From the NCBI GenBank assembly GCA_038845975.1, contig JAWBQF010000011.1, positions 1 through 64,000 of the forward strand: 64,000 nt of DNA. Direction: 5' to 3'. The notes below the pieces were generated by a model. That model was not told the DNA's origin, ran no database searches, and worked only from the letters and a program-made list of their open reading frames with translations. Made by a program: the position numbers and the translations under genes. Positions 33,884-46,103 of the stretch are shown here, one piece after another (position 1 is the first letter of the stretch; each line of letters begins with the position of its first letter). The DNA is from Candidatus Methanomethylicia archaeon (GTDB taxonomy: Archaea > Thermoproteota > Methanomethylicia > CALHIW01).

Positions 33884-34844
33884 GCTTTGTGGCTTAATTC
33901 TTTGTTGTCTAGGTTTCTTCCTTGATTTATGTTTCTTTTTTGATTTTGCTTTATAGGTTTATTAGCATGTTGTATATGTATGCTTGGCTTCTAGTTCTTT
34001 CTTTATGCTTTCCATGTTTTTTGCCATGCAGTATTCTCCATACTGGCGTTTGAATGTTGAGAATGTTGTTTCAACAGCCCAACGTCTACCGTAGCCCACC
34101 ATCCCCGCCTATCCTTCATCACCCACCTTTTTGATAAGCCTAACCGCTCTACGTCTCTCCAGGGACCTCTATCATCTCTAGCGTTACGTCTAGGCTTGAT
34201 GATGGGTTTTACACCCATCCCTCTAAGGAGATTGTAGACTTCAGAATTATCGTAAGCTCCATCCATAACAGCTTCAGAAACCCTCCCTAGAGGCATCGTT
34301 GATTAATTCTGGTAGAGATTCTGAGTCGTGAACGTCATCTGTGGTTACCTCCATAGCTAAACCTCCCTAGTCTTAACGTTTACTGCGAAGTGGATCTTAA
34401 TGTAGCGCTTCTTCTTGCCGTGTACGCGCGTAACCCATCCACCAGACTTATGCTAACACCGCTTGAGTCAACAGCTATAGTAATAGGGCCTCTTGAAACC
34501 CTCAGCGTGTAAAGATGGGTTAAGCATTAATATACGTCTCCTAACCCAAGAGTAATCAACTGATGGAGGGATAAGCCTATTTAAAGCCCTAGTGAAGCCT
34601 TCAAGCTGTCTGTAAGGCATCGAGAAGAGATAACGTACAACGGTGAGGAATTCAACATACCTAACGGTAATCTTGAAGGGGCAGCTACCTTACCACGATT
34701 CAAATCCATAAGCTCAACATCATAGCCTTCAGAAATTCCAAGCCAAGTAGAAGCTCACCACGCCTAACAAGCCTCTCATCAACAACAGACCAATACATAA
34801 ATTAAAGTAAAACATAAGAAACTTAAAGAATTAAGCCACAAAGC
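33884..34844 (-). mobile_element. IS5-family element with frameshifted transposase
   Basis: Perfect 20-bp TIR GCTTTGTGGCTTAATTCTTT; flanks TATTTTCTA/AATTTTCTT; IAVDSSG, KIHFAV, DGAYD, GYGRRWAVETTFS in different frames. Confidence 0.92.
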
Positions 34845-34989
34845 AATTTTCTTACTAATCACATTTGCAAATTTTCGATTTTGAGCTTAATGAAGAGTTT
34901 AACAAGGTAGTTTCGAAAAGTAAAATTATGGTTATTACCTCTATGGCAAATAGTGTTTATCACGTAAATTTACAGTCCAGTATTTAGTA

Positions 34990-35180
34990 AGGTATACTGG
35001 TAAAGTTTTATTTGTGAAGTTGATGTTTATAGTGTTCATGAAACATTTTCAAGATATGGTATATTATATAGTGCCTAATAACACTTGTTATTGCTAATGG
35101 CAAGATTGTAGAGAAATTATAGGTATTATTCCAGAAGCTGAACTTTAAAATCAGCTAGAACAGCATATTATTGAAATAAA
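34990..35180 (+). pseudogene. Thioredoxin-like C-terminal remnant
   Basis: Fragments YIVP / TLVIANGKIVEK / IGIIPEAEL across frames. Confidence 0.3.
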
Positions 35181-35442
35181 TAATTTAAATTCAGGACTAT
35201 GTATTTCAACTACTTATTAAATTCATATTTTAGGTAACACTACCTCTAAGGAAAGTTAGAATTCTAAACTTAAACTAATGTAATAATATTCTCACCATAC
35301 TTTTTAAATGAATTCGTTTAATTCTTAAGTAATTATAGTAAAGATTGTTTAGTCTATGTAGATTCAAGTATTACTTAGGAATTCCGAATTAGAAAATCAT
35401 CTTAACTATTTAGTGTTTTCTAGCCGTTTACCTGTAATTAAT

Positions 35443-35513
35443 AGGTTAAAGATATTTGTCCAATAAGTTTATAAGCTCATCCTCTCTTAAATAAGGAAGT
35501 TGTGGTGGAGGTG
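35443..35513 (+). promoter_or_regulatory. aro operon promoter: candidate operator half-site, TATA box and SD
   Basis: TGTCCA 35457-35462; TTTATAAG 35468-35475; GGAGGTG 35507-35513. Confidence 0.6.
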
Positions 35514-35515
35514 CT

Positions 35516-35572
35516 ATGAATAGCCAATACCAATTTCAAGAAGTAACAATACTACTAATCAGCATATATTAG
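35516..35572 (+). other. 18-codon uORF MNSQYQFQEVTILLISIY, or frameshifted true start of the next gene
   Basis: ATG follows a strong SD and is out of frame with 35593, whose frame is open from 35524. Confidence 0.5.
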
Positions 35573-35592
35573 GTAGTTTAAGAAATATTATA

Positions 35593-36660
35593 TTGAAAGC
35601 TTTAAATAGGAATCAAATACTTCTACTATCTAAAATCAATGAAAATTCTGAGAGTACAATAACCTCTCTTCTAACAAAGCTATCTAATGAACTGGATATT
35701 CCTCTTTCAACATTAAAGTTTAATGCTAAAATTTTAAAATCGTTAAATCTTATAGAGTTTAAGCAGAATGATAAGGCTAGAATTGTCTGCTTATCGGAAG
35801 CAGGTAAATTCATACTTAACATAGTTAACTTACAGTTTAACGAGAATTACTTATCTATTATTAAAAATCTATCTGAAGCTAAACTTATCTTTCCAAGTAT
35901 TTCTCAATCGAGAACTTTTCTTGAAGAGCCTCTTTTAAACAATCTTAAAGCTATAGCCTCAAGAATTAGAGAGAATGTTGTAAGGATGATTTCTGAAGCC
36001 GGTTCAGGACATCTTGGAGCTTCTCTTTCTATTATTGATATTCTTGTAGTTTTATATTTTCTTAAAATTAAACATGATCCAAAAAATCCATCATGGTCTG
36101 AACGTGACAGGGTAATATTAAGTAAGGGACATGCAGCTCCAGCCTTATATGCTGTTCTAGCTGAATGTGGCTATTTCCCAACATCCTTACTAAGTAGTTT
36201 AAGAAGAATTGATAGCTTCTTACAGGGACATCCTGAAGTATACATACCTGGTATTGATATGGTTTCAGGATCTTTAGGTCAGGGTTTATCAATAGCTAAC
36301 GGTATGGCATTATCATTTAGGCTTAATGGTAAGAACAATCGAGTATATGTTATCATGGGCGATGGTGAATTAAATGAGGGTCAGGTATGGGAGGCTGCCT
36401 TAACATCAAGCCATTTAATGCTTGACAATATTACAGTTATAATAGATAGAAATGGTTTTCAACAGGAGGGATCTACTGAAAATATTAAGAGACTTGAACC
36501 TCTAGCTGAGAAGTGGAAGGCTTTTGGATGGCACGCCATAGAGATTGATGGACATGATTTAAATCAAATAATAGCTGCCTTAAATGAAGCTGAACTTACT
36601 AAGGGTTATCCAACAGTTATAATTGCTCATACAATTAAGGGTTTTCAGCAGAATTATTGA
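35593..36660 (+). CDS. Winged-HTH regulator fused to transketolase N-terminal (TPP-binding) subunit
   Basis: IPLSTLKFNAKILKSLNLI..LSEAGK wHTH; GSGHLG, LSKGHAAP, GSLGQG, GDGELNEG..N. Confidence 0.9.
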   Translation: MKALNRNQILLLSKINENSESTITSLLTKLSNELDIPLSTLKFNAKILKSLNLIEFKQNDKARIVCLSEAGKFILNIVNLQFNENYLSIIKNLSEAKLIFPSISQSRTFLEEPLLNNLKAIASRIRENVVRMISEAGSGHLGASLSIIDILVVLYFLKIKHDPKNPSWSERDRVILSKGHAAPALYAVLAECGYFPTSLLSSLRRIDSFLQGHPEVYIPGIDMVSGSLGQGLSIANGMALSFRLNGKNNRVYVIMGDGELNEGQVWEAALTSSHLMLDNITVIIDRNGFQQEGSTENIKRLEPLAEKWKAFGWHAIEIDGHDLNQIIAALNEAELTKGYPTVIIAHTIKGFQQNY

Positions 36661-36672
36661 AATGGTGTTTAA

Positions 36673-37605
36673 ATGAAATCTATTAGGGAAGAATTTGGTA
36701 AGGTGCTTACTAGCCTAGGTGCTAAATATAGTAATTTGGTAGTTCTTGATGCTGATTGTGGTTCTCATACTAAATCTAAGAATTTTTCACAGAAATATCC
36801 TGAAAGGTTTTTCAATATTGGTATAAGTGAGCAAGATCTTGTCGGGATTGCTGCTGGATTAGCAGCATGCGGTAAAATTCCTATTGTTTCATGCTACTCG
36901 ATGTTTTTAATGCGTGCATGGGAGCAGATTAGAAATACCATCGGTAGAGCTAATCTTAACGTTAAGCTTATCGCTACCCATGCTGGGGCATCGCCACATG
37001 CTGATGGAAGCTCACATCAATGTTTTGAGGATCTATCTATTATGAGGGTTATCCCAAACATGACCGTAATAGCTCCAGCAGACTCTAAATCTATGGCTTT
37101 ACTTCTTGAAGAAGCTATAGATCTTAACGGTCCCATTTACATGAGGCTTGGAAGAGATGAAGTTCATGATGTATATGATAGTAATCCCCATCTTGAAATA
37201 GGTAAAGCTAATACTATAGTTGATGGATCTGATGTTTCAATAATAGCTTCAGGAGTTCTAGTTTATGAGGCTTTAACAGCTTCTCAAATGCTTAAAAGAG
37301 ATGGAGTTAGTGCTAGTGTAATCGATCTTCATACAATTAAACCTATTGACACTAACATTATTGTTAATGAATCTAGGAAAACTGGTGCCTTAGTAACTGC
37401 TGAGGAACACAGCGTTATTGGAGGTCTTGGAAGCTCAGTTTCTGAAATTGTTGTCAGTGAGTATCCAGTACCCGTAGAAATGGTTGGTGTTAAAAATAGG
37501 TTTGGTGAGTCTTCACTTTCATATCGTGAGCTTCTTTTAAAGCTTGGATTAACAGCATCCAGTATTTATCATGCTGCTAGAAGGGTTTTACTGAGGAAAA
37601 GGTGA
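36673..37605 (+). CDS. Transketolase C-terminal subunit
   Basis: GISEQDLVG, DGSSHQ, EEHSVIGGLG. Confidence 0.95.
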   Translation: MKSIREEFGKVLTSLGAKYSNLVVLDADCGSHTKSKNFSQKYPERFFNIGISEQDLVGIAAGLAACGKIPIVSCYSMFLMRAWEQIRNTIGRANLNVKLIATHAGASPHADGSSHQCFEDLSIMRVIPNMTVIAPADSKSMALLLEEAIDLNGPIYMRLGRDEVHDVYDSNPHLEIGKANTIVDGSDVSIIASGVLVYEALTASQMLKRDGVSASVIDLHTIKPIDTNIIVNESRKTGALVTAEEHSVIGGLGSSVSEIVVSEYPVPVEMVGVKNRFGESSLSYRELLLKLGLTASSIYHAARRVLLRKR

Positions 37606-37609
37606 TTTA

Positions 37610-38443
37610 ATGAAGGATCTAAAACTTCTTAGTAAGAAAAGTATGGAGGATTTTATCATTGTTGATGTTAATGGCTTAAAGATAGGTAGTAATAGCATAG
37701 TCGTTATTGCCGGCCCCTGCTCTATTGAAAGTATTGATCAAGCCTTAGAGATAGCTAAAACAGTAAAAAGTTTTGGTGCTACTATTTTTAGAGGTGGAGC
37801 CTTTAAACCACGTACATCTCCATATAGTTTCCAGGGACTTGGAGTTGAAGGTCTTAAAATACTTTCAAGAGTAAGAGATGAAACAGGTCTCCCAGTTGTT
37901 ACTGAGGTTATGGATACTAGGGATATAGATATTGTTTTAAAGTACTCTGATATACTTCAAGTTGGAGCTAGAAACATGCAGAATTTCCCTCTTCTTAAAG
38001 AGCTTGGGAAAATTAGAGCTCCAGTTATTCTTAAGAGGGGATTTATGTCAACTATTGAGGAGTGGTTATTAGCTGCTGAATATATTGCTCTTGGAGGAAA
38101 TGACCAAATAATACTATGTGAAAGGGGTATACGGACATTTGAAAGGGCTACAAGAAATACTCTTGATCTAAGCTGTATTCCAATAGTTAAACAGCTATGT
38201 AGACTACCTGTAATTACGGATCCAAGCCATGCTACAGGTATTAGGGAGCTTGTTAAACCTATGGCTTTAGCATCCATAGCCGCTGGGGCTGATGGAATTA
38301 TGGTTGAGGTACATAATAACCCTGATAAGGCATTAAGTGATGGTTTCCAATCTTTAACGTTTAGTGGCTTCAAGGATCTTATGGATGGAATTGTTAAGAT
38401 TTCAAAAGCTATTGGTAGGGGTATTATAGGATGTTTAGGCTAA
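37610..38443 (+). CDS. aroF: DAHP synthase (type I-beta, no regulatory domain)
   Basis: IAGPCSIE, KPRTSPYSFQG, CERGIR, DPSH. Confidence 0.96.
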   Translation: MKDLKLLSKKSMEDFIIVDVNGLKIGSNSIVVIAGPCSIESIDQALEIAKTVKSFGATIFRGGAFKPRTSPYSFQGLGVEGLKILSRVRDETGLPVVTEVMDTRDIDIVLKYSDILQVGARNMQNFPLLKELGKIRAPVILKRGFMSTIEEWLLAAEYIALGGNDQIILCERGIRTFERATRNTLDLSCIPIVKQLCRLPVITDPSHATGIRELVKPMALASIAAGADGIMVEVHNNPDKALSDGFQSLTFSGFKDLMDGIVKISKAIGRGIIGCLG

Positions 38444-39507
38444 TATCTACAGTTCAGGTTAAAACATTGAGTAGATGTTATCCAGTATATATAGGATTTA
38501 ACCTATTGGATTTTCTTGATGTCTTCCTATCTAGACATGGTTTAAAAGGTAAGTTTGCATTGGTATCTCACAAGTCGTTAATGGATATTTATGGTGATAA
38601 AATAATATCCTCAATTAGTAGACTAGGCTTAGATACTATTATAATCGATATTCCTGAAGGAGAAGAGAGCAAGAGCTTTAATATGCTTACACAGATATAT
38701 GATGTACTTATTAATAATAGATTTGATAGATGGTCTACAGTTACTGCTTTTGGTGGTGGAGTTATTGGTGATTTAGCTGGGTTTGCAGCTGCAACATTTA
38801 TGAGAGGTATAAATCTAGTGCAAATACCTTCAACTCTACTAGCTCAAGTTGATTCAAGCATTGGCGGTAAGGTTGCAATAGATTATAGAGGTAAGAACAT
38901 TATCGGTGCATTTTACCAGCCAAATCTTGTTATAACGGATTTAAACTTATTAAAATCTCTATCTGTAAAGGAGTTTAGTTCAGGTCTTGCTGAGGTTATA
39001 AAGTATGGTGTTGTAATGGACCCTCAAATACTGGATATATTGGAGAATTACTCTAATCCTCTCCCAGATGATATTGTAGCTGAGCTTATTACTAGGTCCT
39101 GTAGTTGTAAGGCTAGAATTGTTGAAGCTGATGAACGGGATGAGAAGGATATTAGGATAATATTGAATTTTGGGCATACTATTGGGCATGCTATAGAGGT
39201 AGCGTCAAATTTTAAAATAAGTCATGGTGAAGCAGTAGCTATAGGTATGGTTTATGAGGCTAAGCTTTCAGTAATGCTAGGTTTTTTAGATATAGACGTT
39301 GTAAATAGATTAATAGGTATATTGAGTAAGTTTGGCTTACCAATTTCAGTCAGCCAGTTAAATATTGAAAGAATTTTAAGTTCACTTAGTTACGATAAGA
39401 AGATAAAACATGGAAAAATAAGGCTTATTCTTCTTAAATCTGTAGGTAACCCTATTGTACATGATGATGTTCCAATAGATTCTATTAAAAGAGTCTTGGA
39501 GATGTAG
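38431..39507 (+). CDS. aroB: 3-dehydroquinate synthase
   Basis: GGGVIGD, DSSIGGK, LNFGHTIGHAIE, HGEAV. Confidence 0.96.
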   Translation: MFRLISTVQVKTLSRCYPVYIGFNLLDFLDVFLSRHGLKGKFALVSHKSLMDIYGDKIISSISRLGLDTIIIDIPEGEESKSFNMLTQIYDVLINNRFDRWSTVTAFGGGVIGDLAGFAAATFMRGINLVQIPSTLLAQVDSSIGGKVAIDYRGKNIIGAFYQPNLVITDLNLLKSLSVKEFSSGLAEVIKYGVVMDPQILDILENYSNPLPDDIVAELITRSCSCKARIVEADERDEKDIRIILNFGHTIGHAIEVASNFKISHGEAVAIGMVYEAKLSVMLGFLDIDVVNRLIGILSKFGLPISVSQLNIERILSSLSYDKKIKHGKIRLILLKSVGNPIVHDDVPIDSIKRVLEM

Positions 39508-39510
39508 ATT

Positions 39511-40185
39511 ATGGGTGTTAAAATCTGTCCTGTAGTTACACGTTTCAACGATAATGTGATAAGCATAGCTAATAAATTTAAAATATTAGAGTTAAGAATA
39601 GATCTTGTAGGTAGCTTATGGGTTAATGTAGTTTCAAGAATAAAAACAGATTGGATTGCCACATGTAGACGTAGAGATCAAGGTGGAGCTTGGAGTGGTA
39701 GTGAAACGGATAGAATAAATATTTTAATGGAGGCTATTAGACATGGAGCAAAATTTATAGATATAGAGGATTCCACAAACGGTCTTCATGAATTAGTAAA
39801 AATGTTTAAGTCTATGGGTGTCTTAGTTATAGTTTCACATCATGATTTTAACAATACTCCTGAGTTTAACCATATGGTAGATATTGTTAGGAGAGAGATT
39901 GAATTTGGAGCTGATATATGGAAGATAGCTACAACTGCAAATAGCTTTACTGACTGTTTAAATGTGTTGAGGCTTCTTAAGCTTTTCAGAAATACTCCTG
40001 GAATTGCTTTAGCTATGGGTAGCCATGGAGTATTGAGTAGAGTGCTTTCACCATTACTTAACGGCTTCTTAACATATGCTTCAATTGAAAAAGGAGATGA
40101 ATCTGCACCAGGTCAATTAACAGTTAGTGAGCTATTAGAAATATATAGGCTTATAGGTGTTGAAGTTGATAGATGCGAAAACTAA
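39511..40185 (+). CDS. aroD: Type I 3-dehydroquinate dehydratase
   Basis: ELRID, SHHDFNNTP, KIA, SAPGQ. Confidence 0.93.
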   Translation: MGVKICPVVTRFNDNVISIANKFKILELRIDLVGSLWVNVVSRIKTDWIATCRRRDQGGAWSGSETDRINILMEAIRHGAKFIDIEDSTNGLHELVKMFKSMGVLVIVSHHDFNNTPEFNHMVDIVRREIEFGADIWKIATTANSFTDCLNVLRLLKLFRNTPGIALAMGSHGVLSRVLSPLLNGFLTYASIEKGDESAPGQLTVSELLEIYRLIGVEVDRCEN

Positions 40186-41017
40186 GGTTTACTGTTTAAT
40201 TGGGGATCCTGTTGAACATTCTATTTCCCCATTAATATTCAATACTGTATTTAAGCATCTTGGCTTAAATAGTGTTTATATAACATTTCATGTTAAACCT
40301 GAAAATCTAGAGAGTGCTATTAATGGATTTAAAGCTATTGGTGTTAAGGGTTTTAATGTAACTATACCTCATAAGGTTCGAATAACTAAACTAGTAGATT
40401 ATGTTGATGCTAAAGCTCAGCTTATAAATGCTGTGAACGTTGTTAGTAATTGTAACGGTATATTGAAGGGATACAATACTGATGGATGTGGTGCCTTAAA
40501 AGCTCTTAAAAGCTTTAATGTTATAGTTAGTGGTAAAACAGTTACCTTAGTAGGCGCTGGTGGTGCTTCAAGAGCTATAGCATTCGCAATAGCCTATGAA
40601 AACCCTGAAAAAATCTATATAGTTAATAGAACTTTAACTAGAGCTGAAGAGCTAGCTTATAGTTTAAAAAGTAGGGTTAATGCTAAACCATGTAGCTTTA
40701 ATGATCTATATGCTTTTAGAGAGGCTGATATTATTATAAATTGTACTCCAGTCGGTATGTATCCTAATGTTAATGAATCCCCATTTGATTGTAGTCTCTT
40801 AAAGAATGAATGCGTAGTTATGGATATAGTTTACAATCCTGTTGAAACTAAGCTTTTAAGGGAGGCTAAAGCTTTAGGTTTAAAAACTATAGATGGTGTA
40901 CCAATGCTCATATATCAAGCAGCTTTAGCGTTTAAAATATGGATGAATCAATATCCTCCCATTGATTTAATGATGGCTACAGCTTATAGAGCTTTAGGTG
41001 TTAGCAATGTATCGTAA
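40157..41017 (+). CDS. aroE: Shikimate dehydrogenase
   Basis: HSISP, NVTIPHK, NTD, GAGGA, DIVYNP. Confidence 0.96.
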   Translation: MLKLIDAKTKVYCLIGDPVEHSISPLIFNTVFKHLGLNSVYITFHVKPENLESAINGFKAIGVKGFNVTIPHKVRITKLVDYVDAKAQLINAVNVVSNCNGILKGYNTDGCGALKALKSFNVIVSGKTVTLVGAGGASRAIAFAIAYENPEKIYIVNRTLTRAEELAYSLKSRVNAKPCSFNDLYAFREADIIINCTPVGMYPNVNESPFDCSLLKNECVVMDIVYNPVETKLLREAKALGLKTIDGVPMLIYQAALAFKIWMNQYPPIDLMMATAYRALGVSNVS

Positions 41018-41531
41018 CATTGCATTAATTGGCTTCATGGCGTCTGGAAAAACAACTATAGGTAAAGAACTTTCACGTAGAATTGGATTTAAGTTTATCG
41101 ATACAGACTCCGTGATAGAATCCGTTTTTAATATGACTATTTCGCAGATATTTGAAAAGTATGGTGAGATTAGATTTAGAGAAGTTGAAATTGAAGTATT
41201 TAGGAAAGTATCTCTTGAAAAACAAGCTGTTATATCATGTGGTGGTGGAGCTGTACTAAATTGGATCTGTATGCAGTATATTAAGAGTTCCTCAATAGTT
41301 ATATATTTACATGTATCGCTAGATGAGTTGATAATGAGATTGATGGGTGATAATAGTAGGCCGCTTATTAAGTCTTCAAATAATAGAGAATCATATATTA
41401 GAATGAATGCTTTACTTCGTGAACTCCTCTATGTATACTATGCTGATCTAACTATTGACGTATCAAATTTAACTGTTGATCAAGCTGTTAATGAAATAAT
41501 TAATTGTGTTGGTGGTTTAGTTGAATATTAA
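40998..41531 (+). CDS. aroK: Shikimate kinase, bacterial P-loop type (likely start ATG 41007)
   Basis: GFMASGKTT, DTD, GE..FR..E, CGGG, RPL. Confidence 0.93.
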   Translation: MLAMYRNIALIGFMASGKTTIGKELSRRIGFKFIDTDSVIESVFNMTISQIFEKYGEIRFREVEIEVFRKVSLEKQAVISCGGGAVLNWICMQYIKSSSIVIYLHVSLDELIMRLMGDNSRPLIKSSNNRESYIRMNALLRELLYVYYADLTIDVSNLTVDQAVNEIINCVGGLVEY

Positions 41532-42783
41532 AGTATATCCCTCACAAGTACATGGATCAATTAAGGCTCCAGCATCTAAAAGTTACACTCATAGAGTTCT
41601 ATTTTGCTCTGCTTTAGCTAATGGTAGAAGTATAGTTAGGAATCCCTTATTATGTAGTGATGTTTATGCAACTATAAACGCCCTAAGAAGTGTTGGTGTT
41701 GAAGTTTATGTTAATAATGAAAGTATAATAGTTGATGGTGGTGAATTAACTCAGCCACAAAATCCTATAAATTGTATAGAGTCCGGTACAACTATGAGGT
41801 TTACTGTTGGACTCTGCTCATTAATTAACGGTAAATCTATAGTTACAGGTTCAAAGTCTCTTCTAAGAAGGCCTATCAAGCCTCTTGTTGATGCATTAAA
41901 TGTTTTAGGTGCTAAATGTACATGTATTAATGGACTTCCACCTATAACTGTTGAAGGAGTGTTAAAAGGAGGTAGCGTATTGGTTGATAGTAGTTTAAGC
42001 TCTCAGTTTATATCGTCAATAATGATTGCTGCCCCTAAAAGTAGTATTGGTGTTGAAATCAGATCTATAGTAGAGCCTGTCTCAAAACCATATATTCTCA
42101 TAACATTAGATGTAATGAATTCATTTAATGTTTCAGTAAAGTATAGTAATGATTTTAAGTTTATAAGTGTGGAAAGACAAAACTATACTCCTAAAGACTT
42201 TACTGTTGAAGGAGATTGGTCCTCAGCAGCAATTCTACTTGTACTTGGTGTAGTTGGAGGAATGGTTACAGTTCAAGGTCTAAACATGAATAGTTTTCAG
42301 GGAGATAAAAGTATTGTAGACCTCTTAAAGCTAATTAATATTCCAATTGAAATCGGCAACAATTATGTTTCAGTTACAAAACACTTAATTAAGCCATTTG
42401 AATTTAATATTTCAGATACACCTGACCTATTTCCAATTCTATGTGTACTTTCAGCCTGCTCTATTGGTACATGTAGACTTTATGGAGTTAATAGGTTAAG
42501 ATTTAAGGAATCCGATAGGGTTGTTGCAATGGCTGATGGATTAATGAAAATGGGTGTAAATGTAGCTTTAAGTAGCGACTATATAGCTATAAAGGGTGGG
42601 AGGGTTATGGGAGGTGTTACTATTGACTCCTACAATGATCATAGAATCGCTATGGCTTTTACTGTTCTCGCTACAATAGCTGATAACCCTATAATAATTA
42701 AAAATGCTGAATGTGTATCTAAGTCTTATCCAAGCTTTTGGGATGATGTTCGTAGACTAGGTGTTAAATTTGAGGTGGTTTAA
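41521..42783 (+). CDS. aroA: EPSP synthase
   Basis: SKSYTHR, ESGTTMR, SSQF, LRFKESDR, DHRIAM, KSYPSF. Confidence 0.96.
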   Translation: MNIKVYPSQVHGSIKAPASKSYTHRVLFCSALANGRSIVRNPLLCSDVYATINALRSVGVEVYVNNESIIVDGGELTQPQNPINCIESGTTMRFTVGLCSLINGKSIVTGSKSLLRRPIKPLVDALNVLGAKCTCINGLPPITVEGVLKGGSVLVDSSLSSQFISSIMIAAPKSSIGVEIRSIVEPVSKPYILITLDVMNSFNVSVKYSNDFKFISVERQNYTPKDFTVEGDWSSAAILLVLGVVGGMVTVQGLNMNSFQGDKSIVDLLKLINIPIEIGNNYVSVTKHLIKPFEFNISDTPDLFPILCVLSACSIGTCRLYGVNRLRFKESDRVVAMADGLMKMGVNVALSSDYIAIKGGRVMGGVTIDSYNDHRIAMAFTVLATIADNPIIIKNAECVSKSYPSFWDDVRRLGVKFEVV

Positions 42784-43868
42784 TGTCTCTCGGAAAAAAC
42801 TTTACAGTGACATTTTTTGGTGAAAGCCATGGTGAGTGTATAGGTGTAGTTATTTATGGATGTCCAGCAGGCTTAAAGTTTGATGAGGAATTTATAAATC
42901 AGGAACTTAAAAGAAGATCACCCATAGACTACATGATATCTACTAGTAGGGTTGAAGAAGATAGTGTTAAAGTTTTTTCAGGGGTTTTCAACGGTTATAC
43001 AACTGGTGCACCAATATGTATGGCTATATATAATCGCAATGTAGATTCCTCAGTTTATGAGGAGTTAAGATTTAAACCACGTCCAGGCCATGCAGACTAT
43101 CCAGCATACATTAAGTATGCTGGATTTAATGATTTTCGTGGTGGAGGAATTTTCTCAGGTAGGCTAACGGCTGCATATGTTCTTGCAGGAGCAGTAGCTA
43201 AGATGATGTTGAAAATCTTAAACATTGAGGTTATAGCTCATACAGTTGAAATAGCTGGTATTAAGGCTAAACCCCAAGGTATTGAGGAAATAAGAAGAAA
43301 CATACATAGTAATGTTGTTAGATGCGCTGATTTGGATGCTGCATGTTTAATGATTGAAAGAATAAAGAAAGCTATGGAAAACGGTGATAGTGTTGGTGGA
43401 GTTATTGAGTGTATAGCTTTAAATATACCTATCGGACTTGGAGAACCTCCAATCGATACTCTTGATGGTGATATTGCAAAAGCACTTTTTGCTATACCTG
43501 CAGTTAAGGGTGTAGAGTTTGGATTGGGGTTTGACTTTGCAAGAATGTATGGTAGTGAATGTAACGATCAATTCACAGTTTCAAACGGTAAAATTATAAT
43601 GAAAACAAATAATTGTGGTGGGATTCTAGGTGGAATAAGTTGTGGCACGCCGATAGTATGTAGAGCTGTAATTAAGCCAACACCATCAATACATAAACCG
43701 CAGAAAACGGTAGATTTAAGAAGCATGAAGGAAACAATCATAGAAGTTAAGGGTAGACATGATGTATGCATAGTTCCACGAGCTATACCTGTAGTTGAAG
43801 GTATGGTTTCAATAGTTCTTGCCGATCATGCTATTAGATTAGGATTGGTGAAAACCGTATTGAGGTGA
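42783..43868 (+). CDS. aroC: Chorismate synthase
   Basis: FGESHG, PRPGHAD, SGR.TA, KPTPSI, GRHD. Confidence 0.96.
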   Translation: MSLGKNFTVTFFGESHGECIGVVIYGCPAGLKFDEEFINQELKRRSPIDYMISTSRVEEDSVKVFSGVFNGYTTGAPICMAIYNRNVDSSVYEELRFKPRPGHADYPAYIKYAGFNDFRGGGIFSGRLTAAYVLAGAVAKMMLKILNIEVIAHTVEIAGIKAKPQGIEEIRRNIHSNVVRCADLDAACLMIERIKKAMENGDSVGGVIECIALNIPIGLGEPPIDTLDGDIAKALFAIPAVKGVEFGLGFDFARMYGSECNDQFTVSNGKIIMKTNNCGGILGGISCGTPIVCRAVIKPTPSIHKPQKTVDLRSMKETIIEVKGRHDVCIVPRAIPVVEGMVSIVLADHAIRLGLVKTVLR

Positions 43869-43874
43869 CAGTAT

Positions 43875-44150
43875 ATGAATTTAACCAATAAGCTATCCTA
43901 TGAGAGGGCTTTAATAGATAGTATTGATGAGCAAATAGTTAAGCTTCTTGCTAGTAGAGTTCAAGCAGCTAAGAGAATCGCTGAAATTAAGGCTAAGTAT
44001 GGATTAGGAATTTACAATGGTAAGAGGGAAACCGAAGTCCTATTGAGAGTTAGAGAGCTATCTATGACTTATAATTTAAACCCTGATAAAATTGAAGCTA
44101 TTTTTAAAGCTATAATTAGCTATTGTAGGGAAGTTCAGGAGGATATTTAA
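43875..44150 (+). CDS. Chorismate mutase (AroQ type)
   Basis: R..ID.ID..IV.LL..R..K..RE. Confidence 0.9.
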   Translation: MNLTNKLSYERALIDSIDEQIVKLLASRVQAAKRIAEIKAKYGLGIYNGKRETEVLLRVRELSMTYNLNPDKIEAIFKAIISYCREVQEDI

Positions 44151-45235
44151 TGCTATATGAAATCTTTGAAAGAGTCTTAGCTCTTGAAGCTTCAGGTAGG
44201 AAAATTATTAAGATGAATGTGGGGGAGCCTCCTGAAGACATTCATCCTGAAATCCTAGAATGTATGGTTAAAGCTATTAGGGACGGTAAGGTAAAGTATA
44301 CCTCTTCGAAAGGTATGGTTAAATTAAGAAGAGAATTAGCTGCTATTCATGGCGTTGATGAAGATAATATTGTAATAACTCCTGGGTCTAAATGGGGCAT
44401 ATATGCCTCAATACGTGTAATACTTAGAAATAATGATGGTAATGTAATGGTTTTTGCTCCGTTTTGGCCTGCTTACAGTTTAATGGTTACTGATATAGGT
44501 AAATACTTGAAAGTTGTAGATTTAAAGTTTTCAGGTAATAATTGGATACTAGACTTCAATAGGTTAACTGAAAATATAGGTAATGTTAAGCTTCTAATTC
44601 TAAATAGTCCAAATAATCCAACAAGTACTATGATTAAATATGATGAGTTAAAGAAACTTGTTAAGCTTCTAGATGAATTTAATATTACTGCAATATCTGA
44701 TGAAGCATATATTGATTTAAGCTTTATAGAAGCTAAAAGTCTAATAGATTTAACTAGTGAATGTATTGTCGTAAGAAGTTTTTCAAAGCTTTTCTCTATG
44801 ACTGGACTAAGAATAGGCTATGTAATAGCTAGTAAAGAAGTTGCTAGTGCTATTGCTAACTATAATAGTGCAACCATAACATGTGTTCCTGAATTCATTC
44901 AGGAAGCTGCTTTGAAAGCTCTTGAGTTAAGAAATGAAATAGCTAAGTACATGGTTGATAAGTACCGTGTAAGAGCTGAAATTGCCTATAAAATTCTTAC
45001 TGAAGCTGGATTTAAAGTAGCTAAGCCTGAAGCTGGATTCTATATATTCCCTAAAATAAACATAGACTCTAATGCTTTCTTCTTAAAACTCTTAGAGAGT
45101 GAGGGTATTGCTGTTACTCCAGGATCAGCTTTCGGTAATTTCAACGATTTTATTAGGATATCGCTAACTGTTGACAATCAATTTCTTACTAATAGTTTAA
45201 ATAGGTTAGTGAGGTGCTATGAATATTTTAAATAG
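44150..45235 (+). CDS. Class I/II PLP aminotransferase (aromatic)
   Basis: NSPNNPT, DEAY, SFSKLFSMTGLRIG. Confidence 0.92.
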   Translation: MLYEIFERVLALEASGRKIIKMNVGEPPEDIHPEILECMVKAIRDGKVKYTSSKGMVKLRRELAAIHGVDEDNIVITPGSKWGIYASIRVILRNNDGNVMVFAPFWPAYSLMVTDIGKYLKVVDLKFSGNNWILDFNRLTENIGNVKLLILNSPNNPTSTMIKYDELKKLVKLLDEFNITAISDEAYIDLSFIEAKSLIDLTSECIVVRSFSKLFSMTGLRIGYVIASKEVASAIANYNSATITCVPEFIQEAALKALELRNEIAKYMVDKYRVRAEIAYKILTEAGFKVAKPEAGFYIFPKINIDSNAFFLKLLESEGIAVTPGSAFGNFNDFIRISLTVDNQFLTNSLNRLVRCYEYFK

Positions 45236-46103
45236 AAACATTTTGATAATAGGTGGAGCAGGTAAAATGGGTTTATGGTTTTCAAGGTTCTTCCTTAATT
45301 GTGGCTTTAATGTATCAATATACGATATAGATGTTAAAGCAGCTAGAAACGCTCAGAGAAAACTTAACTTGAGGATTTATGAAAATATTGGGAAAGCTAT
45401 TGAGGATAACAATTTAATTGTTATTTCAGTTCCTATGGAAGCTCTTAAAGATGTCTTTACATCTATTTCACATCACATTCACAATAACCATATAATCATA
45501 GATATATCATCAGTTAAAGTCTATTCAGTTAAGTTAATGCATGAATATGTTAAGCAGGGCTTTAAGATAGGTGTTCATCCAATGTTTGGTCCTGGTGCAA
45601 GAACAATTAGCGGTAAGACAATAATATTTACTCCCATAAACATAGATGATTTTGAACCATCATGGAGTATAGCAAAAATTTTTGTAGATAAAGGTGCTAA
45701 GGCTGTTTTTATGACTCCTGAAGAACATGATAAGTACATATCAGTAATACTAACATTTCCATTTGTTATTAGTATATCAGTAATGGATGTAATTAATAAT
45801 CTTAACTTTGATGATGTAGTAATAAATGAAATATCAAGTCCATCATTTAAGCTCCTACATACATTGTGTAAGGCAATTATAGGTAATGATCCTAAACTAT
45901 ACACATCAATAATAAAATATTCATCAAAAGATGCAATTAAATACTTCTCTAAAATTCTAAACGATATCGCGAACATGGATGAATTAAGTCTTAAAGACTA
46001 TGCTGTTAAGCTAAAAAGTAGATTGAATTTTACAGATCTTCTAGAAGCATATAACCTCATGTATGATTTCTCTGAATTAAAGCAACAATCATATAGACAC
46101 TAG
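45219..46103 (+). CDS. tyrA: Prephenate/arogenate dehydrogenase
   Basis: GGAGKMG, DISSVK, HPMFGP, EEHD. Confidence 0.92.
   Translation: MNILNRNILIIGGAGKMGLWFSRFFLNCGFNVSIYDIDVKAARNAQRKLNLRIYENIGKAIEDNNLIVISVPMEALKDVFTSISHHIHNNHIIIDISSVKVYSVKLMHEYVKQGFKIGVHPMFGPGARTISGKTIIFTPINIDDFEPSWSIAKIFVDKGAKAVFMTPEEHDKYISVILTFPFVISISVMDVINNLNFDDVVINEISSPSFKLLHTLCKAIIGNDPKLYTSIIKYSSKDAIKYFSKILNDIANMDELSLKDYAVKLKSRLNFTDLLEAYNLMYDFSELKQQSYRH

Follow-up and report, generated by a model that had tools for sequence, protein, structure and literature searches.

The DNA analysed here comes from a Candidatus Methanomethylicia archaeon (assembly GCA_038845975.1, contig JAWBQF010000011.1), and the window is the whole 64,000-nucleotide (nt) stretch from position 1 to 64,000 of that contig. 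The gene in question stands at the head of an aromatic (aro) biosynthesis operon and encodes a single polypeptide, in which a winged-helix domain related to Tar (TK0271), the regulator of the Thermococcus aro operon, precedes the N subunit of a split transketolase. A short open reading frame (ORF) in the leader, here called the mini-ORF, lies between this gene and a promoter with a candidate operator. From 5' to 3', the promoter, the leader and the fused gene comprise the following features, in which BRE denotes the B recognition element.

35443..35462, no strand assigned: Tar-box-like inverted repeat AGGTTA-AAGATATT-TGTCCA (AGGTTA-N8-TGTCCA), agreeing with the published TGGACA-N8-TGTCCA at 9/12 specified positions
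35463..35475, + strand: BRE-like ATAAG and TATA box TTTATAAG (35468-35475), a block conserved in comparison with the sister genome and found in the same layout in related loci
35507..35513, + strand: Shine-Dalgarno sequence GGAGGTG of the mini-ORF, conserved in the sister genome
35516..35572, + strand: upstream mini-ORF of 18 codons plus stop (MNSQYQFQEVTILLISIY), with Tyr/Phe codons, in frame +1 relative to the main ORF
35593..36660, + strand: fused Tar-transketolase gene, a single 355-codon ORF with a TTG start and a stop-free translation; its parts are a Tar-family winged helix (aa 1-95, 35593-35877), a linker (aa 96-111) and the transketolase N subunit (aa 112-355), with aa denoting amino acid residues

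A regulator domain and an enzyme subunit in one polypeptide

The two halves of the fused protein were recognized by separate family models. Residues 120-352 match Transketolase_N of Pfam with an E value of 2e-50 (172.1 bits against a gathering cut-off of 22), and aa 1-80 match the NCBIfam family TK0271_fam (NF053753), a model of 89 positions, with an E value of 3.3e-19 and 68.9 bits in the protein search. Scores for the N-terminal domain against this model range from 68.9 to 74.2 bits (E 3e-19 to 2e-20), and in Pfam the first 119 aa gave nothing significant (best E 0.005).

An AlphaFold2 model of the full protein, computed from an alignment of 56 fused and stand-alone relatives, reached a predicted local distance difference test score (pLDDT) of 87.4. 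It predicts three helices (residues 6-17, 23-34 and 38-50), a two-stranded wing (54-58 and 63-67) and a long helix (69-95), followed by a disordered stretch at 96-111 and by the transketolase fold from residue 112 onward. Modelled alone, the N-terminal domain reached a pLDDT of 92.7 and has the winged helix-turn-helix fold of about 85 residues that is expected of the Tar family, and its Foldseek matches were SSV1 F-93, FabT, SlyA, MarR, PadR and CzrA (E 3e-4 to 2e-3). A profile of the domain found no usable relative among PDB sequences (best 5duk, E 0.012), and aa 1-110 gave only generic PadR/MarR leads in the ESM Atlas, every score being below 0.9. The sequence-only reading of this DNA had proposed that one ORF joins a winged helix-turn-helix of about 80 aa to the thiamine diphosphate (TPP)-binding transketolase subunit, and on this point NCBIfam, Pfam and AlphaFold2 agree; the linker, given there as about 35 aa, has a flexible part of about 16 residues (96-111), after the long helix. 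An enzyme and a winged-helix domain of DNA-binding type share one polypeptide here, which is the architecture of a trigger enzyme.

The true start codon of the fused gene is uncertain. The TTG at 35593 is not preceded by a Shine-Dalgarno sequence, which most other genes of the operon have, and on DNA the NF053753 match begins at 35578, five codons 5' of this TTG; translation may begin a few codons upstream of 35593. Variable alignment columns after 35593 number 2, 4 and 10 at codon positions 1, 2 and 3, a coding pattern, and those of 35524-35572 number 8, 5 and 4 by main-frame codon position; we infer that the main ORF starts at about 35587-35593. Up to codon 132, the only canonical in-frame starts (ATG, GTG or TTG) are codon 1 and codon 132 itself, the latter lying within the first transketolase helix of the model. 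Since no canonical start lies between them, the transketolase part can be produced only as a fusion in this genome.

Reality and distribution of the fusion

The possibility that a stop codon had been lost between two separate genes, a concern of the sequence-only reading, was examined in independent metagenome runs, in which the junction is unchanged and free of indels. A DNA run of another study shows no differences over 35300-36700 (0 differences over 35630-36494 in contig X11), and contig X13, from a run of a further study, has one substitution over 35746-35944 and no indels at the junction. Contigs X15 and X16, from RNA libraries, cover parts of the gene including 35507-35679, although contigs of this kind cannot prove transcription or the 5' end.

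The fusion is also found well beyond this assembly. A word-indexed search limited to the N-terminal domain returned five proteins among 226 candidates, all with transketolase domains and 99 to 37% identical, and an exhaustive profile search with the same domain reached 305 representatives at E <= 1e-3. Among the best 150 of these 305, nine are at least 250 aa long, and 7/9 carry Transketolase_N. Read as DNA, the fusion is present in at least 11 loci with frames of 339-404 codons, including the sister genome, a single genome each from another Methanomethylicia family and from another class, five contigs of metagenome-assembled genomes (MAGs) labelled Geothermarchaeota or Nitrososphaeria, and two metagenome contigs; the fused frame of one MAG contig (L029) leaves the locus end after 248 codons. 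Wherever the contig extends far enough, the fused frame is followed by transketolase C, 3-deoxy-D-arabino-heptulosonate 7-phosphate (DAHP) synthase and more aro genes.

Viewed from the enzyme side, the architecture recurs in the same manner and is not confined to this assembly, with the Tar domain present in 23 of 25 long transketolase-N homologues (scanned from the 120 best clusters) and, by hmmsearch, in 46 of the remaining 117 nearest transketolase-N clusters. The transketolase clades in which it occurs share no more than about 40-45% identity. A FastTree phylogeny of the enzyme part divides the fused proteins among three groups and contains several "unfused" rows that match fused rows exactly or almost exactly; the tree requires 15 changes between fused and unfused labels, though many of the "unfused" rows are truncated gene calls. 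Furthermore, one cluster contains a 360-aa form together with a 262-aa form named transketolase. These paired forms and the near-identical fused and unfused rows indicate that many unfused records are truncated gene calls, the regulator half being dropped because gene callers find no canonical start upstream. The tree of the N-terminal domain rests on few columns. Taken over the lineages concerned, the regulator has been welded to the enzyme that makes erythrose-4-phosphate (E4P) repeatedly, or anciently, in evolution. Genes of fused clades are often annotated as a 'transketolase' of 262-272 aa (P0166/P0275, P0183/P0186, P0168 and P0174).

The sequence-only reading regarded the system as undescribed. 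This holds in that no description of a regulator-transketolase fusion was found in the literature searched, where two supplementary items, Fig. S5 of PMC6737238 and Table S2 of PMC11237513, may bear on the point; it holds less well for the architecture as such, which is common in public protein sets and often hidden by truncated gene calls. A survey of archaeal fusions reports transketolase N joined to ribulose-phosphate epimerase as well as full-length fusions, with no regulator fusion in its main text (PMC11237513).

Kinship with Tar

The portion of the Thermococcus report drawn on here (PMC6737238) describes tar as the first gene of the Thermococcus kodakarensis aro operon TK0271-TK0262, and its product as an activator of transcription that binds TGGACA-N8-TGTCCA (of the type TGGNCA-N8-TGNCCA) upstream of BRE/TATA. 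Within that portion, E4P releases Tar from DNA and Trp, Tyr and Phe do not, and its authors could not explain why E4P, instead of the end products, should be the signal (PMC6737238). Tar is likened there to MarR, rather than to ArsR as in the sequence-only reading, and our fold search agrees with a MarR/PadR/SlyA-like assignment. The same pages present Tar as essentially confined to Thermococcales, with homologues elsewhere not found in aro operons (PMC6737238).

Judged from profile and alignment, the N-terminal domain of the window protein is a true homologue of Tar/TK0271. All 65 members of the N-domain alignment match NF053753, and one of the 64 other members, P0077, passes the cut-off of the family with 166 bits when the members are scanned one by one. 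The window domain is 41% identical to P0077 (32/78 residues), the segment of helix 3, the recognition helix, being near-identical; together with the NF053753 match, this identity to a protein above the cut-off upholds the kinship to TK0271 that the sequence-only reading had brought up. A second, divergent Tar-like winged-helix gene of 122 aa stands alone elsewhere in the same genome (C8; L002, 1402-1770, minus strand) and does not adjoin aro genes.

A Tar-type operator in a conserved promoter cassette

The inverted repeat at 35443-35462 stands 5 nt upstream of the TATA box. The combined pattern of box and TATA has one match in the 64-kb window against 0.00 expected, with the pattern partly shaped by the data. 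A test with the consensus taken from the publication, and hence set a priori, was made on 30 promoter loci. These belong to fused genes, to stand-alone Tar-like genes and to the unfused transketolase operons in the Methanomethylicia family f4, and several are close kin; in 26 of these 30 loci, the stretch within 130 nt upstream that best fits the published consensus is placed 5 nt ahead of a TATA-like box. Box, BRE/TATA, Shine-Dalgarno sequence and mini-ORF recur together across related loci, and by comparison of these loci they form a conserved cassette, most likely the binding target of the Tar-like domain.

Contigs labelled Micrarchaeota and metagenome contigs (L027, L030, L044-L049 and L052) carry Tar-like genes that stand alone and likewise have the box, TATA and mini-ORF, and at some stand-alone loci the mini-ORF is rich in His codons (M-T-F-Q-H-D-H...). 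No aro genes were found near these genes within the DNA fetched, nor near the stand-alone Tar-like genes of close relatives within the DNA fetched for them (up to about 10 kb on each side, or about 1.5 kb).

The leader mini-ORF and initiation of the main frame

The spacing between Shine-Dalgarno sequence and start codon of the mini-ORF (GAGGTGCT-ATG) equals that of the prephenate dehydrogenase gene of the operon. In a pattern search, the start M-x-[S/R/F/H]-Q-[Y/H], the Shine-Dalgarno sequence and frame +1 were conserved in 18 of 21 loci, with lengths of 6-24 codons, and by eye two of the three misses carry mini-ORF variants. The DNA motif CCAAYA is invariant in 18/21 related loci, and the four closest loci share both the stop position and the terminal Tyr codon of the mini-ORF. 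At three loci, a canonical start of the main frame overlaps the stop of the mini-ORF (ATGA, TAGTG and GTGA), and at three others an ATA does. From this arrangement, the main ORF would probably be translated by reinitiation after the mini-ORF, which seems to feed ribosomes to the main ORF that lacks a Shine-Dalgarno sequence in the window.

Because all loci have an open main frame downstream from the conserved CCAATA, a programmed -1 frameshift leading from the mini-ORF to the main frame was also considered; it was not retained as the leading idea, as the loci have no shared slippery site and the stop/start overlaps in three of them point to termination-reinitiation.

The leader of the window (35497-35640) showed no attenuator-like RNA structure (fold z = -0.40), and the region 34300-35900 had no Rfam match. 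Unfused transketolase-DAHP synthase operons of family f4 carry the same Tar box, TATA, Shine-Dalgarno sequence and mini-ORF. Their mini-ORF reads (GTG)-S-Q-F-Q-Y-L-stop and is followed by two hairpins, a T-run and the unfused transketolase gene; compensatory changes occur in 5 of 23 hairpin pairs, and the leader is attenuator-like. Nothing relevant on leader-peptide control in an archaeal aromatic or shikimate operon was found in the literature searched. The f4 leaders lie at these positions.

L060:1241-1420: f4 leader
L061:1243-1422: f4 leader
L062:2277-2456, minus strand: f4 leader
L063:2277-2456, minus strand: f4 leader
L058:997-1176, minus strand: f4 leader

The enzyme half and the operon that follows

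The N subunit aligns with the N chain of a solved split transketolase (6yak) with an E value of 2e-80, and the product of the downstream gene aligns with the C chain (6yaj) with 2.3e-91. The motifs GSGH, SKGH, QGHP, GDGE and DRNG of the window protein are all in register with 6yak, so that the catalytic motifs are intact, as had been read from the letters; we take them to be the TPP/metal motif GDG...N and the conserved histidine motifs of the PP domain. The alignment with 6yak_A ends at residue 271 of 309, and the window subunit is about 35 residues shorter at its C terminus (window 36640-36660). In the window clade the C-terminal tail has 5-8 residues, versus a median of 30-36 in other split transketolase N subunits; the short tail is common to the closest relatives of the window protein and to the second fused clade, which is Nitrososphaeria-type.

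In its own genome, which is 93% complete, the fused gene is the only transketolase-N match. A gap of 12 nt separates it from the adjoining C-subunit gene, and in total eleven genes follow, from the transketolase C subunit to prephenate dehydrogenase, where ten had been counted previously. Their spacing is -29 to +12 nt, and the whole forms a 12-gene aromatic (chorismate plus tyrosine) operon. The DAHP synthase consists of DAHP_synth_1 (residues 21-255 of 277) and no additional domain in Pfam, which bears out the earlier statement that it has no allosteric domain. The genes, all assigned by Pfam, are listed below, with EPSP denoting 5-enolpyruvylshikimate 3-phosphate.

36673..37605, + strand: transketolase C subunit (pyrimidine-binding and C-terminal domains), also matched by 6yaj
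37610..38443, + strand: DAHP synthase, 277 aa, catalytic domain only
38431..39507, + strand: 3-dehydroquinate synthase
39511..40185, + strand: type I 3-dehydroquinate dehydratase
40157..41017, + strand: shikimate dehydrogenase
40998..41531, + strand: shikimate kinase
41521..42783, + strand: EPSP synthase
42783..43868, + strand: chorismate synthase
43875..44150, + strand: chorismate mutase (type II)
44150..45235, + strand: class I/II aminotransferase
45219..46103, + strand: prephenate dehydrogenase, the last gene of the operon, followed by 341 nt of non-coding DNA

A putative activator-enzyme and its alternatives

The explanation that we favour, and consider reasonably probable, is that the fused protein is an activator-enzyme controlling its own operon, with transcription plausibly responsive to E4P or to the state of the enzyme, that is, a trigger enzyme. 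The Tar/TK0271-family winged helix would bind, as a dimer, the inverted repeat just upstream of the BRE/TATA of the operon, and the bound fusion would most likely activate transcription, like Thermococcus Tar. The C-terminal half would be the subunit that binds TPP in the only transketolase of the cell and, paired with the next gene's product, would make E4P for DAHP synthase. E4P or the state of the enzyme would then tune transcription of the operon, amounting to negative feedback by the entry metabolite of the pathway. DNA binding, activation, catalysis and coupling between the halves are each steps that we infer for this protein. Regulation of the operon by its own first product, as the sequence-only reading had suggested, appears well grounded given the homology to Tar, the conserved fusion and a Tar-type operator in the published position. 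Because Tar is released by E4P and the regulator is here fused to the E4P producer, operon transcription is plausibly responsive to local E4P, and the link of the fused regulator to E4P, drawn by analogy, would be the attractive step.

Several observations weigh against the activator-enzyme. The N-terminal domain does not reach the curated NF053753 cut-off of 130 bits and is a homologue rather than a member by threshold. Taken alone, the window operator, with 9/12 consensus positions, has a p value of about 0.03. A regex scan of the own genome gave no further convincing Tar boxes, only the site of the operon and chance-like matches; it found no clear box upstream of prephenate dehydratase, and the trp promoter falls off the 5.3-kb trpE contig. 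The fusion is sporadic, occurring in 5 of 401 species genomes of a phylum sample (the domain at all in 37/401) and in 1/120 genomes of another class. With a tail of about 30 residues missing, full catalytic competence is not certain from the alignment. The published effect of E4P on Tar took millimolar E4P, according to the part of the report cited above (PMC6737238). Finally, the f4 relatives use the same promoter with an unfused transketolase, so that the fusion is not required for regulation.

The main rival holds that the two halves are independent, a Tar-like regulator and a plain enzyme, with the fusion fixing their stoichiometry or lending a dimer interface and no signal passing between them. 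We regard this as a possible but less likely account. The disordered 16-residue linker of the model, with no predicted fixed contact between the domains, is consistent with it, as is family f4, in which box, TATA and mini-ORF are retained, the transketolase is unfused and a Tar-like gene stands alone elsewhere; tar is moreover already first in the Thermococcus operon, so that loss of a stop codon would suffice for the fusion. Nevertheless, the persistence of the fusion across divergent transketolase clades suggests an advantage, and the enzyme to which the regulator is fused is the very one that makes the known effector of Tar.

A further scheme would add a second tier to the activator-enzyme, namely an aromatic sensor in which a Tar-transketolase whose own product, E4P, would switch off activation of its operon is combined with a Tyr/Phe (elsewhere Trp) mini-ORF that would gate the fusion by termination-reinitiation and, in the unfused relatives, would drive a hairpin/T-run attenuator of transcription; we hold this two-tier arrangement to be doubtful.

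It is quite unlikely that the transketolase half is a non-catalytic sensor, comparable to regulators derived from inactive enzymes, and that E4P comes from elsewhere. The loss of the C-terminal tail in the window clade and in the Nitrososphaeria-type clade, and the replacement of GSGH by GFH-type sequences in the latter, would fit such a loss of function; the window protein, however, retains the aligned TPP and substrate motifs, the C-subunit gene begins 12 nt downstream, and no other transketolase N was found in the genome despite the presence in the operon of a canonical DAHP synthase that depends on E4P. Production of two proteins from one frame, with internal initiation giving free transketolase N and the full-length fusion a minor product, is more improbable still, for although gene callers often annotate only the 262-272 aa transketolase in fused clades, the window frame offers no in-frame ATG, GTG or TTG between codons 1 and 132, and codon 132 is buried in the first transketolase helix. 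An assembly artefact, or the recent loss of a stop codon in this genome alone, can be set aside, since nothing was found in its favour, the sole oddity being the non-canonical start region, and it is ruled out by identical sequence in independent runs, by the 11 or more fused loci of different lineages and the many protein clusters, with the third-codon-position variation after 35593 also against it.

Comparison with known systems

Like Thermococcus Tar, the activator-enzyme proposed here has a homologous winged helix, is the first coding element of an aro operon and has an inverted repeat upstream of BRE/TATA; unlike Tar, which is a free protein, its regulator is covalently joined to transketolase N, scores below the family cut-off and resides in a Methanomethylicia host. 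The enzyme half resembles the split transketolase of Carboxydothermus hydrogenoformans (6yak/6yaj) in that almost the full length of both N and C subunits can be aligned, and it differs in adding a 111-residue N-terminal module and lacking the last ~35 residues of the N subunit.

The leader peptides of pheA and trp are attenuators of bacterial aromatic operons. As in these, a short ORF containing aromatic codons separates the promoter of the cassette from the first biosynthetic gene, and in the unfused relatives hairpins and a T-run come after it; in contrast to them, the cassette has one to three aromatic codons only, and the window has no structured leader.

BirA, NadR and PutA are bacterial trigger enzymes in which one chain is both the enzyme and a transcription factor that reads the ligand state of the enzyme; they are mostly repressors, with folds and pathways unrelated to those considered here and with coupling proven. 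The window fusion likewise has both domains in one chain, and coupling is presumed for it. Within the Archaea, RbkR, the riboflavin kinase/regulator, offers a parallel in which an enzyme and a DNA-binding domain are likewise fused and the genes under control belong to the pathway of the enzyme, though the enzyme and the pathway are different and the DNA-binding family is apparently different as well (PMC5397151).

Few activators of transcription in the Archaea have, as Tar does, both their site and their effector defined, and the Tar box/Tar system is here extended to several uncultured archaeal lineages. The Tar-transketolase fusion appears to be widespread but unrecognised, with the conserved leader ORF adding a second layer, and many public "transketolase" records are flagged as having had their regulator half cut off by gene callers. 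The fusion makes the open question of how Tar senses aromatic supply testable. The leader ORF with its aromatic codons may represent a rare archaeal instance of leader-peptide control; if the two-tier sensor were true, there would be archaeal leader-peptide control on one Tar-box cassette across Methanomethylicia, Nitrososphaeria-type and DPANN-labelled lineages.

Observations on relatives and on the 5' flank

With the transketolase N of the window as query, the subunit was found in only 12 of 41 genomes of the class, counting that of the window (the relatives being G002-G040), and many relatives in the class may be without a transketolase route to E4P, or without the aromatic pathway altogether. 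Directly 5' of the AT-rich aro promoter region, on the minus strand at 34003-34800 of the window, lies a GC-richer block of short broken frames with a weak DDE transposase match, which is probably a decayed insertion sequence.

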